Of a DNA stretch of 10,730 nucleotides, positions 514 through 10,730 are shown in pieces. The notes under the pieces are model-generated. The model saw only the letters and a program-made list of their open reading frames with translations, was not told the DNA's origin and made no database searches. The stretch comes from a virus, in UHGV virus genome UHGV-0119078; one strand, given 5' to 3'. Positions within the stretch are counted from its first letter, which is position 1, and the number at the start of each line of letters is the position of its first letter. The position numbers and the translations under genes were made by a program.

Positions 514-1089
514 TTACAGTGTCTTTGTCCAGTGACGGCTAACCGTTCTTACAGAGAGATTCAGAAGCTTTGCAACCTGACTTTGTGACAATCCCTTTGC
601 CTTATGCTCTAAAACGGCCTCTGTAGTGTTCACAGCTACAGGACGACCCAACACCTTACCTTGTGCTTTAACACGCTGTAGACCCTGCTTAGTACGCTCT
701 CTGATGCGGTTACGTTCGAACTCTGCAAAAGCCCCGAACATTTGAAGCATCATTCTACCTTCTGGCTTGGATAAGTCCTGTATGGGCAAGTCTAAGCAAA
801 TTAGCTTAATCCCTTTTGCAATGAGCATATCAACCGTTTTCTGTAGGTCGATACAATCACGTCCTAAACGGTCAAGCTTGAGAACCACCAGCGTATCACC
901 AGCCTCTAGTTTATGTGTGACCAAGTTAGAGAACTCTTTACGCTCCATAGCAGCCACTGAACCGGATACTACTTCTTCTATGATTCGTGTCTTAGGGATT
1001 GTGTAACCTGCATTCTTGATGGCTTCAATCTGGTTCTCATTGGTGGAGTCATCAACTGATACACGACAGTAAGCAAAGATGCGTGACAT
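514..1089 (-). CDS. Small serine recombinase, resolvase/invertase family (Hin/Gin/TnpR-like)
   Basis: 191-aa ORF; N-terminal catalytic block YCRVS, conserved GDTLVVLKLDRLGRD and ERTKQGLQRVKAQGKVLGRP blocks closely resembling Hin/Gin and Tn3-type resolvases; C-terminal HTH-like region; SD-like AAGGGA upstream of the ATG. Confidence 0.85.
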   Translation of the reverse strand: MSRIFAYCRVSVDDSTNENQIEAIKNAGYTIPKTRIIEEVVSGSVAAMERKEFSNLVTHKLEAGDTLVVLKLDRLGRDCIDLQKTVDMLIAKGIKLICLDLPIQDLSKPEGRMMLQMFGAFAEFERNRIRERTKQGLQRVKAQGKVLGRPVAVNTTEAVLEHKAKGLSQSQVAKLLNLSVRTVSRHWTKTL

Positions 1090-1096
1090 GTTCTAT

Positions 1097-1200
1097 CCCT
1101 TCTATATAGCCAACAAAGGCCTGTCTTGCTTGTCTATAGCCATTAAATCAATTATCACAATTGTTGTCTATAGCTACAGCTACCTTTTTATATAGACACT
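1097..1200. promoter_or_regulatory. Cluster of TGTCTATAGC-type motifs in both orientations immediately upstream of the small recombinase gene (candidate res-like/accessory binding region and promoter)
   Basis: TCTATATAGCC 1101..1111, TGTCTATAGCC 1131..1141, TGTCTATAGCT 1165..1175, inverted TATATAGACA 1190..1199; 1165..1199 forms an imperfect 35-bp palindrome (TGTCTATA ... TATAGACA). Confidence 0.4.
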
Positions 1201-1544
1201 TAACGGGCGTTTGTTGTCATGTGTATTTATACAGTTAAAGACCTCGATAGATGCCTTTATAGCAACTCACAGAGAAAGTCAATGATATTTGGCTTTTTTG
1301 CAAAGGGGGTCACATAGCTGGTGTGACGGGTACTTAGCAGACATACAGATATTTTCGAAGATTCGGGGAAGATGAGATTCAAAGAGGGCTAGTCATTTTT
1401 TATAAAAATTTTCAGAGACTGAAAAGTTACTGTACAGATTTTGCACAATCTTACCAAGCCTCATAGTTGATTCGATTAGAAGCTAATCTCATAGAAAGCT
1501 CTGTAGCGAGTTTTAACCCCATTTTTAGGGGTAACCTATAGGGA

Positions 1545-1641
1545 TGTACTAACCACCTTAAAATAAAGGGGTAAAATCGCTTAGAATGCGTTACAGAGCG
1601 TCTGAGAAGCCATATTCACAGATTTTACTAAAGTCTCAGAC
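1545..1641. repeat. Left arm of about 97-bp imperfect inverted repeat (pairs with 4417..4513)
   Basis: Ungapped alignment of 1545..1641 with the reverse complement of 4417..4513 gives about 69% identity, with core blocks 27/31 (1581..1611 vs 4447..4477) and 12/13 (1629..1641 vs 4417..4429); both arms begin with TGT at the outer end. Confidence 0.7.
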
Positions 1642-1661
1642 TTCTAAGTGGTCTTTTTAAC

Positions 1662-1710
1662 AGGAGGGGTTCCCCTATGGTCACATATCCCCTCTCTCTC
1701 CCGCTTAGTG
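1662..1710 (+). repeat. Copy 1 of a three-member motif family: G-rich hairpin followed by TCTCCCGCTTAGTG
   Basis: AGGAGGGGTTCCCCT hairpin then GGTCACAT then TCTCCCGCTTAGTG (1697..1710, identical 14-mer also at 2371..2384). Confidence 0.5.
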
Positions 1711-2114
1711 TCCCTTGATAGTATCTAGAGAGTATGCCTGTAAAACTTCTATATCAGGTCAGATTTAGAGGGTTTGATAGAATCTTCAAAGGTACTTGAC
1801 AGATAACTATGAAGTTGCCAGGAAGGAGTGTTTAACGGGAGGAAAGATACGATATAACCCGAAGGGGAGAGTATCATCTTAACAATTATCTTAAGAATAA
1901 AAACTGAAAAATTCTTAACAGAACTACCAAGAGGGAGCGATAAGACCAGAGGTAGTGACCTTGTTAAATAGGCCGTTTCAAAGCTCTTAAGAGTTTGTTA
2001 AGTAATGGCTATGTGAACAATCTTACCACTTTGTCAATGCTTTTGTCTTTGACCTAAATCAATAAAATGTATCGTTTGATGCACTTTTAAACAAAATAGC
2101 TAAAAAATCTTTTT

Positions 2115-2163
2115 AGAGGGGCGCTTCGCTTGGGGTCACTATGTTCTTTCTCTCCCGTTAAGA
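2115..2163 (+). repeat. Copy 2 (divergent) of the G-rich hairpin / TCTCTCCCG motif family
   Basis: AGAGGGGCGCTTCGCTTGGGGTCACT ... TTTCTCTCCCGTTAAG; shares GGGGTCAC and TCTCTCCCG with the copies at 1662 and 2338. Confidence 0.4.
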
Positions 2164-2337
2164 GGGAAGTTACAGGGACATTTCAAAGCCCTGATAAGGT
2201 AAGCCCGATGATAACAGAAACAGAGGGCAAAACCACTTATCAACACTGTGAACGAATAACGTAAAGGGCTGGTTAAGAAGGTCGGTTTAGGGATTGGTAG
2301 ATGATTCGGATGAAGCATCCTCATAACAATACCAATT

Positions 2338-2384
2338 AGAAGGGAGCTTCCCTTTCTTGGGTGTCGCTCTTCTCCCGCTTAGTG
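2338..2384 (+). repeat. Copy 3 of the G-rich hairpin / TCTCCCGCTTAGTG motif family
   Basis: AGAAGGGAGCTTCCCTTTC hairpin then TCTTCTCCCGCTTAGTG; 14-mer 2371..2384 identical to 1697..1710. Confidence 0.5.
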
Positions 2385-2413
2385 GATTGATTAAGAAGAC
2401 CTCTGAAGTTTCT

Positions 2414-2584
2414 CTGTGAAGGTGCTGGACAGCCTTATATATGGCTAATTACAACTTATTGAAAAATAAGAACTTTTAGAAGTTACTGTTAAGGTTACGG
2501 AGTTAACTGTGAAGAGACTTGTCAGTTCTCTATATATGGCTAATTACAACTTATTGAAAAATAAGAACTTTTAGAAGTTACTGT
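2414..2584 (+). repeat. Tandem direct repeat, two units (2414..2489 and 2507..2584) with a perfect 54-bp core (2436..2489 = 2531..2584)
   Basis: Core TATATATGGCTAATTACAACTTATTGAAAAATAAGAACTTTTAGAAGTTACTGT is identical in both units; each core holds a 6-bp stem with GAAA tetraloop (CTTATT-GAAA-AATAAG) and an adjacent 5-bp hairpin (AACTT-TTAG-AAGTT); units share CTGTGAAG upstream with a divergent linker. Confidence 0.75.
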
Positions 2585-2684
2585 CAGAGAGGTGAATACT
2601 TGATAGATACAGCTTTCCGGTTCTGTCAAGAGGTTTCACTACCCACCAGCTAAAAATATTTCAGAGGCGGGAGTGATGGGGGGG

Positions 2685-2861
2685 TTAGGACGGGTCTTTG
2701 TGGTCATTATCCTTAAGGTCAAGCGTCCATGTACGACCGAACAGTTTAAAGACAACAAGCACTCTGACGAGGACGTAGCGGAGTAACAGACCTGCAATCA
2801 GCCCGATACCTCCACCAGCCCATACATCAGGTGACCCCAGTTCAGGAGGGAGATTTACCAT
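2685..2861 (-). CDS. Candidate small membrane protein (58 aa from internal ATG with AGGAAA SD-like sequence; 70 aa if started at 2897)
   Basis: ORF encodes one strongly hydrophobic segment (WAGGGIGLIAGLLLRYVLVRVLVVFKLF) followed by a charged tail; locally GC-richer than surroundings. No recognisable family; could be spurious. Confidence 0.3.
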   Translation of the reverse strand: MVNLPPELGSPDVWAGGGIGLIAGLLLRYVLVRVLVVFKLFGRTWTLDLKDNDHKDPS

Positions 2862-2913
2862 TAAATTTCCTGTGTGCAATGCAATACCATGTGACATACA
2901 TAGTTGATTCGGT

Positions 2914-2938
2914 TAGTTGGGCTTGTACCAACCCCTAT
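2914..2938. repeat. Right copy of 25-bp direct repeat TAGTTGGGCTTGT(T/A)CCAACCCCTAT
   Basis: 24/25 identity with 111..135; lies just upstream (on the minus strand) of the small membrane ORF and about 90 bp upstream of the 3026 promoter. Confidence 0.6.
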
Positions 2939-3025
2939 CGAATAAACCTCATAGCCACGCCTTTATATTTTACTCTCCCCATAGAACCATTATACCACAG
3001 ATGTTAATAAAATGTTAAAAAATAC

Positions 3026-3054
3026 TTGACATTAGTCTTTGAAAATGCTAGTAT
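3026..3054 (+). promoter_or_regulatory. Sigma70/SigA-type promoter for the 3106..4417 operon
   Basis: Consensus -35 TTGACA (3026..3031), 17-bp spacer, extended -10 TGcTAGTAT (3046..3054), followed by ATTGTATATATA element shared with the 4553 promoter. Confidence 0.55.
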
Positions 3055-3105
3055 TGTATATATAAGTTAACAGAATAATAACATCTTATGAGGGTCGGAA
3101 CATGA

Positions 3106-3663
3106 ATGAGAGACGCAGAATTTAGAGCGATGCTTCAGGCATCGAGACAACGTAACAAGCACAACTCCTACGCTTACACAAACTCCCCCACCAGCCACGA
3201 ATTACCCAAGTTTACCAAGAAAGAACGCAAAGGCATTGACGAAGTAATTCGGGCAATTACACCGAGGAACCGTTACATGCCAACACGCAAAACAACAAAG
3301 AACAGCATCAAGAATTATCTGGCTAGCTTTGACAGCTACGCGCAACTACCGAGCAAGCTTGATGATATTTTTATTGGATTTTGCAGAAGCGAGGGTCACC
3401 AGAAATACAACCAGAAGGTTTTTTATTTACTGCGAAGTCTTGATGAAATTAACTCAGCCACCGTGACAAATCATCTTCAGCGTCAAGCAACCAGACTTAG
3501 CCATGAATTACCAAGCGATAAATATTGCGCTTTGCTTGCTGTAATGTGCGCAAAGTTAATTGGTGTTGTTGAGCATCATATTGCCGTTGGAAATATTGAG
3601 CCAATGGAAAACGAGCAACCAGATTTCGAGTTTGACCCGTATTTAGTTACAGAGGAATTTTAA
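3106..3663 (+). CDS. Hypothetical protein (185 aa), basic N-terminus, acidic C-terminal tail
   Basis: Intact ORF directly downstream of the predicted promoter; GAGGG SD-like sequence upstream; stop codon directly abuts the next ATG (TAAATG). No family recognised. Confidence 0.65.
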   Translation: MRDAEFRAMLQASRQRNKHNSYAYTNSPTSHELPKFTKKERKGIDEVIRAITPRNRYMPTRKTTKNSIKNYLASFDSYAQLPSKLDDIFIGFCRSEGHQKYNQKVFYLLRSLDEINSATVTNHLQRQATRLSHELPSDKYCALLAVMCAKLIGVVEHHIAVGNIEPMENEQPDFEFDPYLVTEEF

Positions 3664-4417: not shown

Positions 4418-4513
4418 TCCGAGACTTTAAGAGAAATTAGAAAAACAGCTTCTCAGACGCTCTCAATCGCATTCTAACGCAAAAAACTACCTTATTTTAG
4501 GGTGGGTAACACA
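4417..4513. repeat. Right arm of about 97-bp imperfect inverted repeat (pairs with 1545..1641)
   Basis: See left arm; this arm starts at the stop codon of the 4217..4417 ORF and ends about 40 bp before the 4553 promoter. Confidence 0.7.
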
Positions 4514-4552
4514 GTAAATAAGAATTGATGTTACCAATCTGTTAAAAAGCTG

Positions 4553-4581
4553 TTGACAAATAACCTTAAGCATGACATAAT
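4553..4581 (+). promoter_or_regulatory. Sigma70/SigA-type promoter for the 4923..9034 gene set
   Basis: Consensus -35 TTGACA (4553..4558), 17-bp spacer, extended -10 TGaCATAAT (4573..4581), followed by ATTGTATATATA (4580..4591), identical to the element at 3053..3064. Confidence 0.5.
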
Positions 4582-4848
4582 TGTATATATAGGGAGAGCA
4601 ATTCTCCTTGAATTAAACTATTAATCGTTCTACATCAATGATAGTTGTTTTGAGTTGGAAAGGTGCAATGCTTTTCGTCATGGCCTATTTAGCCCACACT
4701 AGATAGGCTATCTCAAAAAGTACTCTTGTTCATTCGTTTGAATCCCTTAGATGTTTTAATTTCTTCACCTTATGAATGGCCCTTTATAAGAAATTATCTA
4801 GGGCTATTCAGTTTTTAAAAAGCATACTTGGCAAACCGCCTTTTAAGT

Positions 4849-4913
4849 CTCTTCTAAGTTTGTAGGCTGTCAGGTGTGCTTTTTAAAAACTGAAATACTT
4901 TAGCTTAGAAGAG
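4849..4913 (+). promoter_or_regulatory. 5-prime-UTR hairpin predicted to sequester the ribosome-binding site of the 4923 gene
   Basis: Perfect 10-bp inverted repeat CTCTTCTAAG (4849..4858) / CTTAGAAGAG (4904..4913) with a 45-nt loop; the 3-prime arm overlaps the SD (GAAGAGG) 10 nt upstream of the ATG; the UTR from the predicted promoter is about 330 nt. Confidence 0.35.
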
Positions 4914-4922
4914 GAAAAAACA

Positions 4923-5633
4923 ATGACAAACGATATTTACATTAACGGTAAAAAGATTGATAGCTTCGGTGACTGGTCGCCACAGACTGAACATCCAGCT
5001 ATCACTATTCAGCGTAAAGAACACGATGAAAGAATTAAGCTTGAGCAATCGTTAAAGATGTCACCAAAGGTAATTTCCTTTGTGTCTCCTGAGCCTCAAG
5101 AAATGCCAGATATCTGCAAAAGTGAAGCACTATTTAATCTTGAGCGTGAATACTACCCACAGTTAAAAGAACAGCGTATTCGACTTGATGACGCTTACAG
5201 CAAAGTTACCCTGATGCAATCAGCTATTGAGCCATCAGAATTTGAGATTCAGGATGAATTGTCACAGAAACCATTTGTCTATTACCAATATGAAGACAAT
5301 GATGGTTTTGGTACTTTTCCTGAGAATATCCCAGACGTGATTAATAATCTTTCTGACGGATATCGAATTGTGAAGATGATTGGAGCTTCAAGAGGTGCTG
5401 GTCAGTTTATTTACATGACCAATAAGAGCGATGAAGAACTCCGTGAAATTGCCAGACAGAACATCTTAGCATCACGTAACAAGCAACTTGAAAATGTTAA
5501 GTTGTGTCTCTTAAGAGAGCTTCAGGCTATGAAAGACCTTATTTCTGCATATGAAACGCAGAAGAAGGTTGCTATGCAGGCTGATATTGAGCAGTTAGTG
5601 AAGATTTCTCAGAAATACGCAAAGGCACTTTGA
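4923..5633 (+). CDS. Hypothetical protein (236 aa) with predicted C-terminal coiled coil
   Basis: Intact ORF with AGAGGAA SD-like sequence; no family recognised by inspection. Confidence 0.65.
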   Translation: MTNDIYINGKKIDSFGDWSPQTEHPAITIQRKEHDERIKLEQSLKMSPKVISFVSPEPQEMPDICKSEALFNLEREYYPQLKEQRIRLDDAYSKVTLMQSAIEPSEFEIQDELSQKPFVYYQYEDNDGFGTFPENIPDVINNLSDGYRIVKMIGASRGAGQFIYMTNKSDEELREIARQNILASRNKQLENVKLCLLRELQAMKDLISAYETQKKVAMQADIEQLVKISQKYAKAL

Positions 5634-5980: not shown

Positions 5981-8107
5981 ATGAGCAAATTCACAGTTGA
6001 TAGTTTTATCGTTGAGTTAGGCTTCAGCGAGAACGTTATTAAGGGCTTGCAAAGAGTTGAAAAAGCAGCTTTGCAGTCAGCACAAAGAATTGAAAAGAAC
6101 CTAAATAAAGGCTTCAAGATTAATACAAAGCAACTTGACAGTAATCTGACAAGTTCTTTGAAGTCAATGGAAGGGAAAATTAATAAGACCTTTGACCGTC
6201 TGGAAGCTAGAGCAAGAAATACTAGAGTTTTCCGTTTCACAAGTCAGGTTAATGACGTTATTAATCCGCCAAAACAACCGAGGCCAAGAAGAGTTACTAG
6301 TGACCGAGCTATTACAGCGGCTTATTCAGCGAATATGACTAAGCTGAAAGGTCTTAACCCAATTGTCGAGAAATACATTAAGAGTCAGTTTTACGCATTA
6401 AGTAGTAAAGCTGGTCAGATGGATAACACCAAGTTTAATGAAGCCCTTGCTAAACTAAATTCAAGTGTACGAGAAGCAATTGCTAAAGCCAGAGGTCATA
6501 CATCCACCAGCATTAACGGTGACAGAGCAGCTAATAGTCTTGATAGTTTGAGTTCAGCAGCAGTTAAAACAGCAGGTGCATTTATCAGCTTTCAGGCTGT
6601 ACTATCCGCTTATCAGAAGATTATGGAAGTTGGCCTTCAACGTGCATCATCGGAAAGAAGTATTGATTTCGTATTCGGTGACCAAAGTACACAGGTCAAA
6701 AAGTTCATTCAAGATTTAACTCAAATTACTGGTATGGACACAACCGAAACACAAGCACAGTTTGCTTCATTTGGTGCATCTGCAAAAAATACGATGGGTC
6801 TTGAAGGCTCAGAGGAATTATTTAAAAACTTAACTGGATATGCCCGTTTAATGGGTCGTTCAGATGAGCAGATTCAAAGAGCATTAACCGCAGTATCGCA
6901 GATGGCTTCTAAGGGTCAGGTGATGGCTGAAGAGCTTAAGGGGCAACTATCTGAAGCTTTACCGGGTGCTACTCAGGCATTTGCAAAGGCTTTAGGTCTG
7001 ACTGAAAAACAGCTTTTCGATAAGATGAAAAATGGTGATGTTAAAGCCTCTGATGCACTCCCTAAGTTTGCTAAAGAACTTGGTTCACAGATTAATTCCA
7101 GAGGTGGCTGGAAAGCTATTCAGGACTCTACGCAGACGATGTTAGGGAACTTAAAGAATACTTGGAACAACTCACTAACGGATATCTTCAGAGGTTCTGA
7201 AAATGGTCTTCAAGATTTCACAAGAAGCTTAACCAATCTTTTAAATAGTCTTGGTGGGAGTGGTAAAACATTAGGTGAAAGTCTTGGTAATCTCATGACT
7301 TCTATGTCACACGGTGTCGATAACCTGACTGATATTAGTTACAGGGTAAGGGCGTTCTTTGACGAGGTGACATTGGCTTATCGTTCACTAAATGACACTC
7401 AGAAAAAAATTGTTGATGGCCTATCTGATGGGTTAATTGATGGTTTGAAGATGCTTGCTGTAGCTGTTACTGCTCAAAAGGCTGCAAATGTAGCTGGAGG
7501 CTTGTTAAACCTTGCAAATGCTGTTACTTCATTCGGTGACGCTGTTAATAAAGCTAAAGCTGGCAAGGCTGGTTCTTCAGGTGGTGCGCTAAATAAAGTT
7601 GGTAGAGTTGTTCTTTATGCTGAGTTGGTGAACTTTGCTCTTGATAATTTAAACCCTGAAGCGGCTAAGAATCCGAACTTACACCAATCAGGTATTGGAA
7701 CAGAGACAAACTTCAACCCTGAATACAAAGGCGATTCATCTAAACCAAACCAAATTAATGATGGATGGGCTAAGATTGGTGGTTCTATCGCTGACTGGTT
7801 TAATGGTGCAGCTAATAAAATTGCTAACTTCCAAGAACCGATGAATAACTTCGTAAATAACACACAATCAACTCCACCAGCTATCGACACGGTTAATAGC
7901 AATGCTCAATTAGCTATGGCTGTATCAGAGTTAGGAAGAAAGGTAGACGCTTTAACAGCAGAAACTAAGAAGCCCTTGTCACTTAATATCAAAGGTGAAG
8001 CAATTGTTAGGCCGGATGAACCATCTTTCTTTATTTTCAATCAATCGGCTAATGACCAGTTCACGCAGGATATGCTCTTAAGTTCAAGCTATCCAGAAGA
8101 AGAATGA
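5981..8107 (+). CDS. Tape-measure-protein-like protein (708 aa)
   Basis: Central block GQVMAEELKGQLSEALPGATQAFAKALGLTEKQLFDKMKNGDVKASDALPKFAKELG resembles the conserved core of phage tail tape measure proteins (recalled from memory, not searched); alpha-helical, Ala/Gly/Ser/Asn-rich, low-complexity C-terminal part; AAGAGGTGA SD. Coding confidence is high; the functional call is moderate. Confidence 0.55.
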   Translation: MSKFTVDSFIVELGFSENVIKGLQRVEKAALQSAQRIEKNLNKGFKINTKQLDSNLTSSLKSMEGKINKTFDRLEARARNTRVFRFTSQVNDVINPPKQPRPRRVTSDRAITAAYSANMTKLKGLNPIVEKYIKSQFYALSSKAGQMDNTKFNEALAKLNSSVREAIAKARGHTSTSINGDRAANSLDSLSSAAVKTAGAFISFQAVLSAYQKIMEVGLQRASSERSIDFVFGDQSTQVKKFIQDLTQITGMDTTETQAQFASFGASAKNTMGLEGSEELFKNLTGYARLMGRSDEQIQRALTAVSQMASKGQVMAEELKGQLSEALPGATQAFAKALGLTEKQLFDKMKNGDVKASDALPKFAKELGSQINSRGGWKAIQDSTQTMLGNLKNTWNNSLTDIFRGSENGLQDFTRSLTNLLNSLGGSGKTLGESLGNLMTSMSHGVDNLTDISYRVRAFFDEVTLAYRSLNDTQKKIVDGLSDGLIDGLKMLAVAVTAQKAANVAGGLLNLANAVTSFGDAVNKAKAGKAGSSGGALNKVGRVVLYAELVNFALDNLNPEAAKNPNLHQSGIGTETNFNPEYKGDSSKPNQINDGWAKIGGSIADWFNGAANKIANFQEPMNNFVNNTQSTPPAIDTVNSNAQLAMAVSELGRKVDALTAETKKPLSLNIKGEAIVRPDEPSFFIFNQSANDQFTQDMLLSSSYPEEE

Positions 8108-8263
8108 TTTAACGGTGTTCTACGTGAATAAAGCAAAGTTAATACCCGCACTGAAAAATAATTTTTACGTAGCTCACGCTTAACAGAGAAAATACTTATA
8201 TATCAAAGGCTTGGTTAAAAATGATTAAAATACACTAAGCCTTTGAAATCAAAGGAGAATTTA

Positions 8264-9034
8264 ATGATTTTTAGCAATCAAATCCGCTACAGTGGCAAAG
8301 ATGGCGTTTACTTCCACTTAAGAGATAATGTAGATGCCTTCTTAACCTTATCAGCAACTGAACAGATGGAATATGACAGCCCTATGATGGTGACAACTCA
8401 GGCTATGCAATCGGGGCAAACTATAACTGATAATGTTCAGAGAGCACCTAAGACCATCTCTATTAGCGGTGTTGTAGTGGTTGATTCGACGGGTTCAGTT
8501 CTATTAACCAGACAGGGGCAACTTGTAGAAACCTTTATTTCTACGGTTGAACAATGGCGAGACCAGAAGCAAATCATCACTATTGTTTGTAAAGATGGAA
8601 TATCTATCACTGATAGTATCATTACTCAGTTTAAAGCGAGTAAAGAGCATACCATTGCTAATGGTCTTCGTATTCAGATGACCTTCCAAGGTGTAGAATT
8701 TCGTTCAATCGTAGGTCAAACTGATATTTCAGCAGCAACTGGAAAGACCGCTACCACGAATGATGGCGGTTCTACCAGTAAAAAGAACACTGGCAACACT
8801 ACAACGAGTCTTGGAAGCCCTATGCTGACCTGTAAAGAGCTTTTTAGCTATTCGGCAAGTGAGTTATCAGATGAAGCGCTAAAAGCCCGTGTAACGTGCT
8901 CTAAGAGCGTTAGCGTTAAAAATGGTGAGAGCACCTTCACAGCCTCAGCTAATGAGCAAGCTTCAAAGGTGCTTAAGTCGGGTAATGCTTTACGGAAGTT
9001 TTCTGTAAATCCGAACAAGAAGGGCACTTATTGA
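8264..9034 (+). CDS. Hypothetical protein (257 aa from ATG 8264), possibly tail-associated given its position after the tape-measure-like gene
   Basis: AAAGGAG SD 6 nt upstream of ATG 8264 (the ORF-track TTG start at 8243 has no RBS); Ser/Thr/Gly-rich central linker. No family recognised. Confidence 0.55.
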
Positions 9035-9066: not shown

Positions 9067-10587
9067 TTACAGTTGATAAGCGTCTATTTCTAGTAGCTCT
9101 TTTTCAGCAATTTCAAATATTGATGTTCCATCATTTAGCGGTAACGGGTTTGTAGGTATGGTGATTTCAGTGTCGTTCTGTAGCGTTACAATTACCGAAT
9201 CCTTACCCAATGTAAGCCCTTTTAGATGTTTGGACAAAATCAACTGACACTCGACACGACCCGCTTTAGTTGTCAGGTCAATATCTTTAAGCTGGGGTAG
9301 TTCCTTATCAGTGAGTGAAGCCTTACGCCTCATGTTATCAATCGTGGTCTGTAGCTCTGTACGCCTCTGGTTCAGTTCCTTAATCTGAATTTTTAGTTCA
9401 TCAATATCATCCATCTCAAGAAGTAGGGCGGTAGCTTTCTTGATTCTGGTTGTGACAATTTCAACCTCATGCTGTAGAGATGCAATCTTCCCCTCTGCTT
9501 CTCCATCATTCCCCACGTCAATCATTCCTAGAAAATTTTCAAGCATCCACTTATCAAACGGTTTACGCTTCAACGGAGGAACATCACAGCGACCATCAAG
9601 ATGGTTATTGCACCGATAAACGCCCTGATACTTATTCTTAGTCCCTGTAGGGTGAACACTAGCCCCGCACTGACACCTAAACAGACCTTTGAAGATGTTA
9701 ATCGTTAATGGATTATCACTTGCAGGTGTACGGCCTATACGGTTCTTACCAAGAATCTCTTGAGCTTTATTGAACGTTGAAGCATCTATAGCGGCTTCGT
9801 AGTAGTTCGGTATAGCGGGGCGGTCATTACGTTGTGATGCTGGTAACGTGCCTATCGTTGTCTCTGACCTTAAGATGGTGCGTACAGAGTGAACACTAAA
9901 CCCGTTAGCATCTTTACGGCGACTAAACGACTTTATACCGTTGCTTTGAAGGTGACGGGCGATGTTATGCAGACTTTCACCACTTAGCAGCAGCTTGAAA
10001 ATCAGTCTTACAGTCTCAGCGTGTTCATTGAGTTTAAAAGTATCGGGGTCAATCCATCCGGGAACCATCTTTGTTAAACGTTGTTCACCAGCAAGGGCAA
10101 GTTTTGCACGTTGCTCCCATTTCTGAGAAACACGGAAAGACTTCTGCTTAGATTCCTGATGCGCTATGTAGGCTTTGACACGCTGGATGATTGAGATTCC
10201 TAAATCATCGGCTAAAGCATCCTTTGTGTAGATAAGACCATCTTGTAGCGTGTGAATCTCTAACCCGTTGCCTAAGATGCGATTCATCAAGGCTTCTGTT
10301 TCAAGGTGTTCTAAGCGGCCTATACGGTCGATACTCTCAACAAGCAAAATCGTACCTTCTGGAAACTCCCCAGACTCAATACGGGCTAACATGTCACCAA
10401 ACTGACCAGTAAGATGCTTACCTTTGTAACCGGATAGACCTTCATCACTGAAAGACGCTACTACTTGAGCATCGCTATTCTTCTTCAGCCACTGCTTGAA
10501 CAGGTCGTTTTGTCGTCTGGTTGAATCTGCACCTTCAGCGCCTTGTATGGCTGATGAGAATCTCAAGTATGTTATTACGGTTCTCAC
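9067..10587 (-). CDS. Large serine recombinase (phage-type serine integrase)
   Basis: 506-aa ORF; N-terminal resolvase-type catalytic domain (YLRFSSAIQ, LLVESIDRIGR), extended recombinase domain, Cys-rich zinc-ribbon-like motif (CQCGASVHP ... YRCNNHLDGRCD) and C-terminal coiled coil (KIQIKELNQRRTELQTTIDNMRRK); start codon appears to be GTG (plus-strand CAC at 10585..10587) with GGAG upstream. Confidence 0.85.
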   Translation of the reverse strand: MRTVITYLRFSSAIQGAEGADSTRRQNDLFKQWLKKNSDAQVVASFSDEGLSGYKGKHLTGQFGDMLARIESGEFPEGTILLVESIDRIGRLEHLETEALMNRILGNGLEIHTLQDGLIYTKDALADDLGISIIQRVKAYIAHQESKQKSFRVSQKWEQRAKLALAGEQRLTKMVPGWIDPDTFKLNEHAETVRLIFKLLLSGESLHNIARHLQSNGIKSFSRRKDANGFSVHSVRTILRSETTIGTLPASQRNDRPAIPNYYEAAIDASTFNKAQEILGKNRIGRTPASDNPLTINIFKGLFRCQCGASVHPTGTKNKYQGVYRCNNHLDGRCDVPPLKRKPFDKWMLENFLGMIDVGNDGEAEGKIASLQHEVEIVTTRIKKATALLLEMDDIDELKIQIKELNQRRTELQTTIDNMRRKASLTDKELPQLKDIDLTTKAGRVECQLILSKHLKGLTLGKDSVIVTLQNDTEITIPTNPLPLNDGTSIFEIAEKELLEIDAYQL

Positions 10588-10675: not shown

Positions 10676-10688
10676 CAATGACCCTTGA
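10676..10688. repeat. Right copy of 13-bp perfect direct repeat CAATGACCCTTGA (candidate attR core)
   Basis: Identical to 43..55; lies about 90 bp outside the integrase start. Confidence 0.45.
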
Positions 10689-10730
10689 TTTACCTCGCCG
10701 CTTCCCCTGGCCGACGTTACTTTCGGTCTG

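Follow-up and report, generated by a model that had tools for sequence, protein, structure and literature searches.

Satellites mimic the packaging signals of the phages that they exploit. The cos site of P4 is identical to that of P2, SaPI and PICI elements carry pac or cos signals, and PLE of Vibrio cholerae exploits the virulent myovirus ICP1. We know of no described satellite that mimics packaging by direct terminal repeats. The subject of this study is a stretch poor in open reading frames (ORFs) at positions 1201-3025 of the virus genome UHGV-0119078, whose full length of 10,730 bases is referred to here as the window. It belongs to an integrative island of about 10.6 kb, seated in the tonB gene of Escherichia coli, and its one clearly assignable element is, by sequence homology, a copy of the inner boundary of the Felixounavirus direct terminal repeat (DTR). 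We read the stretch as control and cis-acting DNA of an undescribed island tied to these phages, probably a mimic of their packaging or terminus site, and consider the chances of this reading to be even.

The island resembles P4, PICI and PLE in being a small integrative element with its own recombinase, no capsid genes and a cis site apparently copied from the end or packaging region of a helper. With PLE it further shares a virulent myovirus as its putative partner and a large serine recombinase as its integrase. It differs from all three in that the copied site is a single DTR boundary, that no capsid-size, terminase-redirecting or replication gene is recognisable, and that it carries tape-measure and Dit-like tail genes. 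An integrase, helper-exploiting genes, the lack of a full virion set and a size in the range of about 7-18 kb are the features by which satellites of the P4-like, PICI, cfPICI and PLE kinds are defined, and the island has them. None of the core marker genes of the described satellite families (primase/AlpA/Psu-Delta-Sid, PICI Pri-Rep/packaging, PLE RepA) was found in it, and the island is not a member of a described family. Neither a published satellite or other dedicated parasite of Felixounavirus nor a description of the tonB island was found in the open-access literature.

The concatemer junction and terminal repeat of T7-type phages contain short repeat arrays and pac elements, and elements critical for packaging are found close to its inner end. 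In T7, insertions at positions 142 and 162, by the inner end of the left repeat, are reported to be lethal (10.1101/2024.10.10.617714). The present locus is like the T7 junction, with its critical cis elements near the inner end, in consisting of non-coding, repeat-rich DNA round a short DTR, and unlike it in that there is no sequence relationship between the two. With the Felixounavirus terminal region the locus shares about 200 bp of homology, CTTAAC motifs, a patch of the DTR interior, a mobile hairpin (H1) and a first downstream gene on the opposite strand; unlike that region, it cannot be aligned outside the homologous module, has the dense phage CTTGTTA/CTTAACA arrays reduced to a few copies, and has no left DTR boundary that could be found. 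The OLE, GOLLD, ROOL, HEARO and raiA RNAs are similar in being long, conserved, ORF-free stretches of phage-related elements with hairpins and GNRA-like loops, but the present stretch has no covariance-model match, no excess stability and no multi-stem architecture backed by covariation, and is made of mosaic segments. It is like iteron origins, including the origin regions of PLE and P4, in its non-coding repeats, its A+T-rich palindromes and its place in an element that would need replication after induction, yet it lacks tandem, regularly spaced iterons and an initiator gene.

Homology to the inner boundary of the phage terminal repeat

The classic typing phages of E. coli and Salmonella include those of the Felix-O1 type, which are also applied in therapy and biocontrol. 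Two genes of the island, encoding a tape-measure protein (5981-8107) and a Dit-like baseplate protein (8243-9034), are about 76% identical in nucleotide sequence to Felixounavirus genomes. Between the island and phage versions of the Dit-like protein, identity is 65-68%, and the tape measure (708 amino acids vs 735) is almost identical to the phage protein over the first ~45 residues and 31-35% identical over the rest. These are the only island proteins with phage homologues, and together they have the look of a device that hijacks the assembly of phage tails or acts as a decoy in it.

The record of phage NBEco005 holds an exact DTR of 651 bp and the independent record of CRP22 one of 579 bp. 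The end of the repeat is identical in both, GGGCTACC being followed across the boundary by AAGCAGATATAC (that is, GGGCTACC and then AAGCAG). Together with its flanks, the DTR forms a terminal region of about 1.7 kb without genes. No study of how the ends of Felixounavirus DTRs are formed was found in the literature. A report on phage Pr103Blw, with a genome of 88,421 bp, gives a DTR of 581 bp by PhageTerm (PMC8303462), and on the matching genome size this phage was taken as a Felixounavirus.

The inner (right) boundary of the Felixounavirus DTR has a homologue in the window, a module at positions 1253-1460 (plus strand), which is proposed here as a putative mimic for packaging or terminus recognition. 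This module matches NBEco005 and EC106 with BLAST E values of 1e-12 to 3e-15, and positions 1271-1449 align with the phage terminal region at about 65% identity. Block GGGTACTTAGCAGACAT (1328-1344, plus strand) is aligned on the phage terminus, where GGGCTACC is followed by AAGCAGATAT, placing the equivalent of the phage cut between 1334 and 1335. The blocks common to island and phage are TGATATTTT, TTTGCAAAGGGG, TAC..A.CAG, CAGATATTTT, TTTATAAAAATTTT and CTGTACAG; among the islands, TTTTGCAAAGGGGGT, CAGATATTTT and TTTATAAAAATTTT are at least 95% conserved, and GGGTACTTAGCAG is a further block of the module. Two adjoining A+T-rich perfect palindromes, ATTTTTtatAAAAAT and TTTTCAGagaCTGAAAA (1395-1425), also lie inside the module, and here TATAAAAATTTT is common to the phage, in whose 87-kb genome it occurs once, beside the DTR end.

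Searches with nhmmer, using a hidden Markov model (HMM) of the module, gave one match in each of about 65 island loci, and the module was present, in the same orientation throughout, in every related island having enough upstream sequence. When an HMM built from the islands only was run against the whole CRP22 genome (87,193 bp), a single significant locus was returned (506-721, E 2.5e-22). This locus straddles the DTR end between 579 and 580, and a truncated copy is also found in the right-hand repeat. No other site of the phage genome carries the sub-blocks of the module, a finding that speaks against a repeated class of promoter. Furthermore, island columns conserved in at least 90% of loci are identical to the phage consensus in 81% of cases vs 44% elsewhere (Fisher p 7.5e-8), so that constraint seems to fall on the same positions in islands and phage. 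Tiling the remainder of the 1.7-kb phage terminal region over the islands returned only H1. The original prediction had offered a packaging site as one alternative to a large RNA; for 1253-1460 that alternative is supported, given the homology to the terminal-repeat boundary of a helper-type phage.

A conserved mosaic of hairpins and repeats

Next to the module lies an array of hairpins and repeats (about 1460-2684), which none of the 57 distinct islands has lost; in these, module and downstream promoter are 1.24 to 2.68 kb apart. Blocks 1840-2080 and 2400-2880 are nearly universal, and other blocks are present in 28-80% of islands. In the universal blocks the median identity to the window is 0.84-0.86, as high as at the first and second codon positions of the adjacent gene (0.85) and above the 0.67 of its third codon positions in the same 53 loci, a comparison that has to be read with caution as recombination decouples histories within the island family. 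This conservation of the array suggests constraint.

The array is an apparently constrained mosaic in the style of the phage terminal region, with CTTAAC motifs, a patch of DTR interior and a mobile hairpin in common. In the island stretch as in the phage terminal region, CTTAAC/GTTAAG shows an enrichment of about 5-fold, and 29 of the 91 phage copies fall in the terminal 2.7% of the genome. The patch, at 1932-2028 (plus strand), shares about 70-74% identity with the DTR interior of the phage (EC106, E 3e-9; CRP22 267-354, E 1e-5). The shared hairpin, H1, is a 58-nt mobile insert at 2288-2345 (plus strand) that is 94-100% identical to sequences of NBEco005, NBEco004 and EC106, in each case in the gene-free terminal region of the phage genome. 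Its position and orientation differ between NBEco005 and EC106, it is absent from most islands, and T(A)AG borders it at each of the three sites compared (window 2288-2345; L001 257-315; L002 3001-3054). Judged on these comparisons, H1 behaves like a tiny mobile element that may have passed between island and phage. EC106 also holds a short 'empty' version of H1, GGGATTGGTAACAATACCAATTAG.

A second hairpin element, H2 (2899-2954), is likewise sporadic, being present or absent among relatives and found at other positions or orientations in loci L041, L068, L074 and L085. The H2 core GTTGGGCTTGTWCCAAC occurs twice in the window; the copy within H2 is GTTGGGCTTGTACCAAC (2916-2932), and the first copy, found with a regular expression, is GTTGGGCTTGTTCCAAC (113-129). 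Related to the flanks of H2 is a small hairpin element, CATAGTTGATTCGATTAG-AAG-CTAATCTCATAG (1462-1494, plus strand), which contains a perfect 6-bp hairpin at 1474-1488 and gave a weak match to EC106.

At least three internal repeat families had been noticed by eye in this region, and three are real. One is a tandem duplication at 2436-2584 (plus strand; period 95) with exact 54-nt copies at 2436-2489 and 2531-2584, which is present in one to three copies in relatives. An 18-nt direct repeat pair (D3) stands at 1462 and 2899 (2899-2916). The D2 family comprises cores of CTCTCCCGCTTAG type on the plus strand at 1692-1708, 2146-2162 and 2366-2382, the second of which is preceded by GGGGCGCTTCGCTTGGGG (its complement holds GCGAAGC) and the third by the hairpin AAGGGA-gct-TCCCTT (2340-2354). 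TCTCCCG is found three times in the D2 copies and not at all in the remainder of the window on either strand. The surroundings of the cores form a composite motif of about 55 nt, present three times (1655-1712, 2105-2165 and 2335-2390) and consisting of a G-run hairpin, GGTCAC, a pyrimidine tract and TCTCCCGCTTAGTG; a similar GGTCAC...TAGTG stretch lies within the phage terminal repeat (L002 2378-2425). A further hairpin, TCTTAA-caattatc-TTAAGA (1877-1896, plus strand), belongs to a group of three clustered copies of TCTTAA(C/G)A, the likeness of which to the first 40 nt of the phage DTR was not above that of shuffled sequences (18 vs 16.1 ± 1.6).

Coding capacity and promoters

The original prediction described the whole of 1201-3025 as ORF-free, with no credible coding capacity on the plus strand. 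This holds in so far as there is no ORF of at least 71 amino acids on either strand of 1090-3105; it does not hold for 2685-2861, which contains a small gene. Within 1253-2684, no conserved ORF of at least 25 amino acids was found, any ORF of the window being common to at most 11 of the 58 related segments used for ORF counts, and the possibility of an overlooked conserved protein frame in this part can be set aside on the strength of those segments. The comparison set as a whole consisted of 67 metagenome loci and several genome loci.

The small gene (2685-2861, minus strand) encodes a protein of 58 amino acids with a single predicted transmembrane helix and was annotated by the Prokaryotic Genome Annotation Pipeline in NZ_AP027844. 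It is conserved at the protein level and full-length in 44-56 of the 58 segments. A 58-amino-acid ORF also flanks the phage terminal region, and the two proved to be unrelated. A sigma-70-like promoter (TTAACA-18-TATAAT, 11 of 12, TG; 2989-3018, minus strand) reads into the small ORF and stands at the same site in L019. A second one (TTGACA-17-TAGTAT, 10 of 12, TG; 3026-3054, plus strand) reads into the gene for a 185-amino-acid protein and the operon beyond. This divergent-promoter block (2989-3054) is the most conserved part of the region (91-94%), and the exact pattern of 3026-3054 retrieves the 67 metagenome loci. Within the core of the array, no sigma-70-like promoter was found on the plus strand in the two alleles scanned.

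Most alleles carry a terminator-like hairpin just past the small ORF, and a minus-strand transcript from 2989-3018 should therefore stop there in most alleles. In the majority allele the likely terminator is CCCCTATAC-CATCTC-GTACAGGGG, at the equivalent of about 2640-2685 of the window (e.g., L019 3476-3499). In the window itself unrelated sequence stands in its place; one variant carries the exact reverse complement of the hairpin, and others an insert in its loop.

Folding, covariation and origin features

The high density of hairpins that had been pointed out in the stretch is real, if modest. Perfect stems of at least 6 bp number 11, compared with 3.6 ± 2.1 in dinucleotide shuffles of 1253-2684 (about 3-fold, z 3.5), and a coding control gave a z of 0.1. 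Mean folding z-scores were −0.66 on the plus and −0.73 on the minus strand vs −0.50 and −0.28 for coding DNA (Mann-Whitney p = 0.18 and 0.045), and the stretch overall folds no better than coding DNA of the same element. A search of the whole window against Rfam returned no match at the gathering threshold, and at E up to 10 over 900-3300 there was only CRISPR-DR22 (16.7 bits, E 3.8), a chance match. GNRA-type loops are indeed present, in CTTATT-GAAA-AATAAG at 2455-2470 and 2550-2565. As structural elements these two hairpins were rejected, since only one arm varies among homologs, without compensatory change. A sliding structure conservation index above 1 obtained with RNAalifold in 2320-2690 reflects near-invariant columns and not compensation. 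Most predicted pairs are invariant, and the mosaic alleles make the alignment of 1720-2040 unreliable.

Compensatory base changes among homologs lend good support to one 5-bp helix; the GNRA and other hairpins vary on one arm only. The helix belongs to a hairpin at 1846-1875 (plus strand) with the stem GATAC/GTATC and an apical CCC-GAAG-GGG. Its alleles have the stems GATAC/GTATC, AGAAC/GTTCT or GTAAC/GTTAC, with the apical stem changing to match. RNAalifold found three pairs altered on both sides, and in an alignment of 60 loci based on a covariance model both partners differ in three of the five pairs, with 98.8% of cells able to pair. Covariation scored 0.255 vs 0.083 ± 0.011 for shuffles, none of 500 of which reached this value, and no more than 0.074 for slid controls, numbers that derive from only about three independent alleles and from an alignment fitted to the model. 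The three alleles adopt similar folds, and G-U pairs make these better on the plus strand. The data support one small structured element at this position, of RNA or of single-stranded DNA, and no fold on the scale of a kilobase.

The features of an iteron origin, the other alternative in the original prediction, did not materialise. There are no regularly spaced iterons, only two tandem runs of 11-12 bp in two copies each; the D2 copies are 454 and 220 bp apart, and no initiator gene is recognisable among the island proteins. The cumulative GC-skew minimum at about 1050-1350 coincides with a switch in gene orientation and is therefore uninformative. The plus strand is rich in purines and G, as had been remarked, with positive GC and AT skew over about 1650-2700.

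Proposed packaging mimicry and its alternatives

The best-supported conclusion from the sequence comparisons is that the island would depend on, or interfere with, Felixounavirus phages. In the mechanism that we propose, it would excise and multiply during phage infection, the phage terminase or end-processing machinery would recognise and cut it at the mimic, between about 1334 and 1335, and island DNA would be packaged into phage particles. We infer recognition and cutting of the module by analogy, given that the critical elements of T7-type phages lie near the inner end of the repeat; the predicted binder is the small terminase subunit. As the other DTR boundary was not found, packaging would have to end differently; a speculative possibility is that it starts at the one boundary and ends by headful, e.g., from island concatemers. 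The hairpin array may act as DNA near the end, by binding protein, by forming single-strand hairpins or as a spacer, as the corresponding region presumably does in the phage.

Several observations weigh against packaging mimicry. Tiling the phage terminal region over the islands gave no homologue of the outer (left) DTR boundary, and local alignment of that boundary with the window scored no higher than with shuffles; the island therefore cannot simply copy the two-cut formation of ends in the phage. For the greater part of the 1.2-kb hairpin array no counterpart was detected in the phage, and protein-family searches of the island recognised no terminase, capsid or replication gene. The high identity of the non-coding blocks could partly reflect recent recombination in a mosaic family instead of selection. 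A compensated hairpin with a G-U bias to the plus strand is more typical of RNA, and an origin or regulatory site next to the terminus would give the same homology as a packaging site.

Of these alternatives, the RNA deserves the most attention. A promoter that may depend on the phage could drive plus-strand transcription of the core of about 1450-2680 as one or more structured regulatory RNAs (a long leader, small RNAs or a decoy for a phage RNA-binding protein), the boundary module then being a separate neighbour or the promoter region. The three compensatory alleles of 1846-1875 (0.255 vs 0.083), which fold alike and better on the plus strand, speak for this, as do a G- and purine-rich plus strand like the sense strand of the downstream operon, conservation above that of third codon positions and, in most alleles, a G+C hairpin adjoining a T run at the end. 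We nevertheless consider it rather improbable: the covariation comes from about three independent alleles in a model-fitted alignment, several prominent hairpins, both GNRA-looped ones included, vary on one arm without compensation, there is no Rfam match, folding z-scores are like those of coding DNA, no sigma-70-like plus-strand promoter was found in two alleles, and segments come and go, duplicate or give way to a methyltransferase gene. The large ornate RNA that headed the original prediction is not supported either, in view of the missing Rfam match, the z-scores, the one-armed variation of the GNRA hairpins, the missing promoter and a mosaic make-up that includes a tandem duplication, mobile mini-hairpins and, in some relatives, an inserted methyltransferase gene. 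The most improbable reading is that the stretch is functionless, decaying filler made of phage terminal remnants, dead genes and selfish mini-hairpin insertions. Its mosaic make-up, with the sporadic H1 and H2 inserts and the tandem duplication, and the replacement of part of it by cargo genes have that appearance, but each of the 57 distinct islands keeps at least 1.2 kb of non-coding DNA, conservation of the blocks exceeds that of adjacent third codon positions, the conserved columns match the phage, one hairpin is compensated and there are no conserved ORF remnants; we give this reading hardly any credence.

Two further explanations accept the phage homology and assign it another function. 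The module and its A+T-rich palindromes might be a replication origin copied from the phage, from which the phage replisome would amplify the island. That no replication protein is recognisable in the island would fit, as would the palindromes at 1395-1425 with TATAAAAATTTT common to the phage, the skew minimum and the short, DNA-type hairpins with GAA loops; however, the homology is centred on the end of the terminal repeat and not on a known origin, the skew minimum falls at the gene-orientation switch, and iterons or regularly spaced repeats are missing, so that we regard this as unlikely. It is slightly more unlikely still that the module serves as a phage-responsive regulatory site, a mimic of a promoter or factor-binding site that triggers excision and the tape-measure and baseplate genes for interference (defence) without packaging. 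In favour of this, the module is placed upstream of the island operon and has the same orientation in all loci, and a tape measure that keeps the first ~45 phage residues and has diverged in the rest fits a decoy; set against this, the conserved blocks are single in the phage genome, at the DTR end, instead of being repeated upstream of genes, and between the module and the operon there are about 1.7 kb of DNA and a strong promoter of constitutive appearance. It is possible that more than one of these applies, as origin mimicry, an infection-sensing site and a plus-strand regulatory RNA are not mutually exclusive.

Packaging mimicry can be extended to the tentative and somewhat doubtful proposal of a new family of satellites of virulent Felix-O1-type phages, which would hijack DTR packaging through the inner boundary alone and bring their own tape-measure and baseplate-hub proteins plus a conserved array of single-strand hairpins, some of them mobile between island and phage. 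This strategy would be unlike those of P4, PICI, cfPICI and PLE. If true, bacteria would have in the island a new means of interfering with Felix-O1-type phages, or of travelling in them, with a bearing on phage-therapy failure and gene transfer. The module would likewise point to the DNA site that defines the phage genome ends and provide a handle on DTR packaging. More generally, a hairpin-rich ORF desert in a mobile element need not mean a giant RNA.

Insertion site and gene content of the island

The window is 100% identical to part of the E. coli chromosome NZ_AP027844, between yciI and tonB, where the tape-measure gene is broken by IS5. Comparison with the empty site showed that positions 1-55 correspond to 1246-1300 of the K-12 sequence and positions 10676-10730 to 1288-1342, with 13 bp in common. 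This 13-bp attachment core, CAATGACCCTTGA, is present at the left end (43-55), within the start region of tonB, and at the right end (10676-10688), where the tonB frame resumes; the element is therefore about 10.6 kb long and seated in the first codons of tonB. The start codon of tonB is kept, and its native upstream region is separated from it by the island, so expression of tonB must come from island-derived sequence.

A large serine recombinase is encoded at the right end of the island (9067-10587, minus strand). A small serine recombinase of the resolvase/invertase type (191 amino acids; 514-1089, minus strand; Pfam Resolvase, E 1.8e-37; PHROG DNA invertase, E 1.8e-56) lies in the variable left module. 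The ORF-poor stretch is followed by the gene for the 185-amino-acid protein (3106-3663), for which one remote Aeromonas-phage match was the only one, and by genes for proteins of 92, 90 (HNH) and 66 amino acids and then of 236 and 67 amino acids. None of the five other island proteins could be placed significantly in a family of Pfam, PHROG or NCBIfam; the sole match was a sub-threshold one to DndE for the 92-amino-acid protein. No tRNA or tmRNA was found in the window.

The 236-amino-acid protein (4923-5633) is labelled 'transposase' in many NCBI records. An HUH or rolling-circle enzyme, which would explain the DNA hairpins, was considered and rejected, as there was no Pfam match at E up to 10 and no HUH motif. 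PHROG and NCBIfam searches at permissive thresholds gave no match either, and no phage homologue was found. Its gene lies just upstream of that for the tape measure, a position that suggests a role in tail assembly instead. Directly before it, 4418-4922 forms a second ORF-poor stretch of about 500 bp within the operon. Relatives have an ORF of 102-107 amino acids near there, and a pseudogene of it was ruled out, no trace of the protein being left in 4418-4922.

Distribution and variation among relatives

Of 5426 complete E. coli genomes, 568 (about 10%) carry the non-coding region, with identities of 70-97%, so that the island family is common. The region occurs at a median of two places per genome, always on the chromosome and at several insertion sites, and the complete genomes hold roughly 1200 island copies. 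Among species representatives, the island family was found only in E. albertii, and no distant homologues were therefore available for the analysis of covariation. A plasmid collection gave no match. Close homologues of the 185-amino-acid protein occur in Escherichia (including E. albertii), Shigella, Salmonella and Citrobacter; the host genera of the matching Felixounavirus records are the same.

One related island, the 11,233-bp metagenome contig L022, has a terminal overlap of 55 bp, indicating a circular or tandem form that may equally be an excised circle or packaged DNA. Many other metagenome contigs are about 11-12 kb long, close to the size of the island.

To the left of the stretch, relatives differ from the window, some with different alleles of the recombinase, which may face either way, others with a gene annotated as AP2/ERF or with a Dam-type methyltransferase, and this left part therefore acts as a variable slot. 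A simple inversion of the small-recombinase segment was rejected as the explanation, because the relatives hold different alleles and not the same DNA flipped. Cargo of the same kinds (a Dam-type N6-adenine methyltransferase or an AP2/ERF-annotated gene) also stands in or beside the stretch, at L004 4137-4805, L010 1799-2323 and L096 1082-1744. Between the small recombinase gene and the stretch, the intergenic positions 1100-1197 are poorly conserved among relatives and hold four copies of CTATAG/TATATAG (TTGTCTATAG at 1130 and 1164, TATATAG at 1103 and 1190), possible operator or recombinase sites to judge from the motif.

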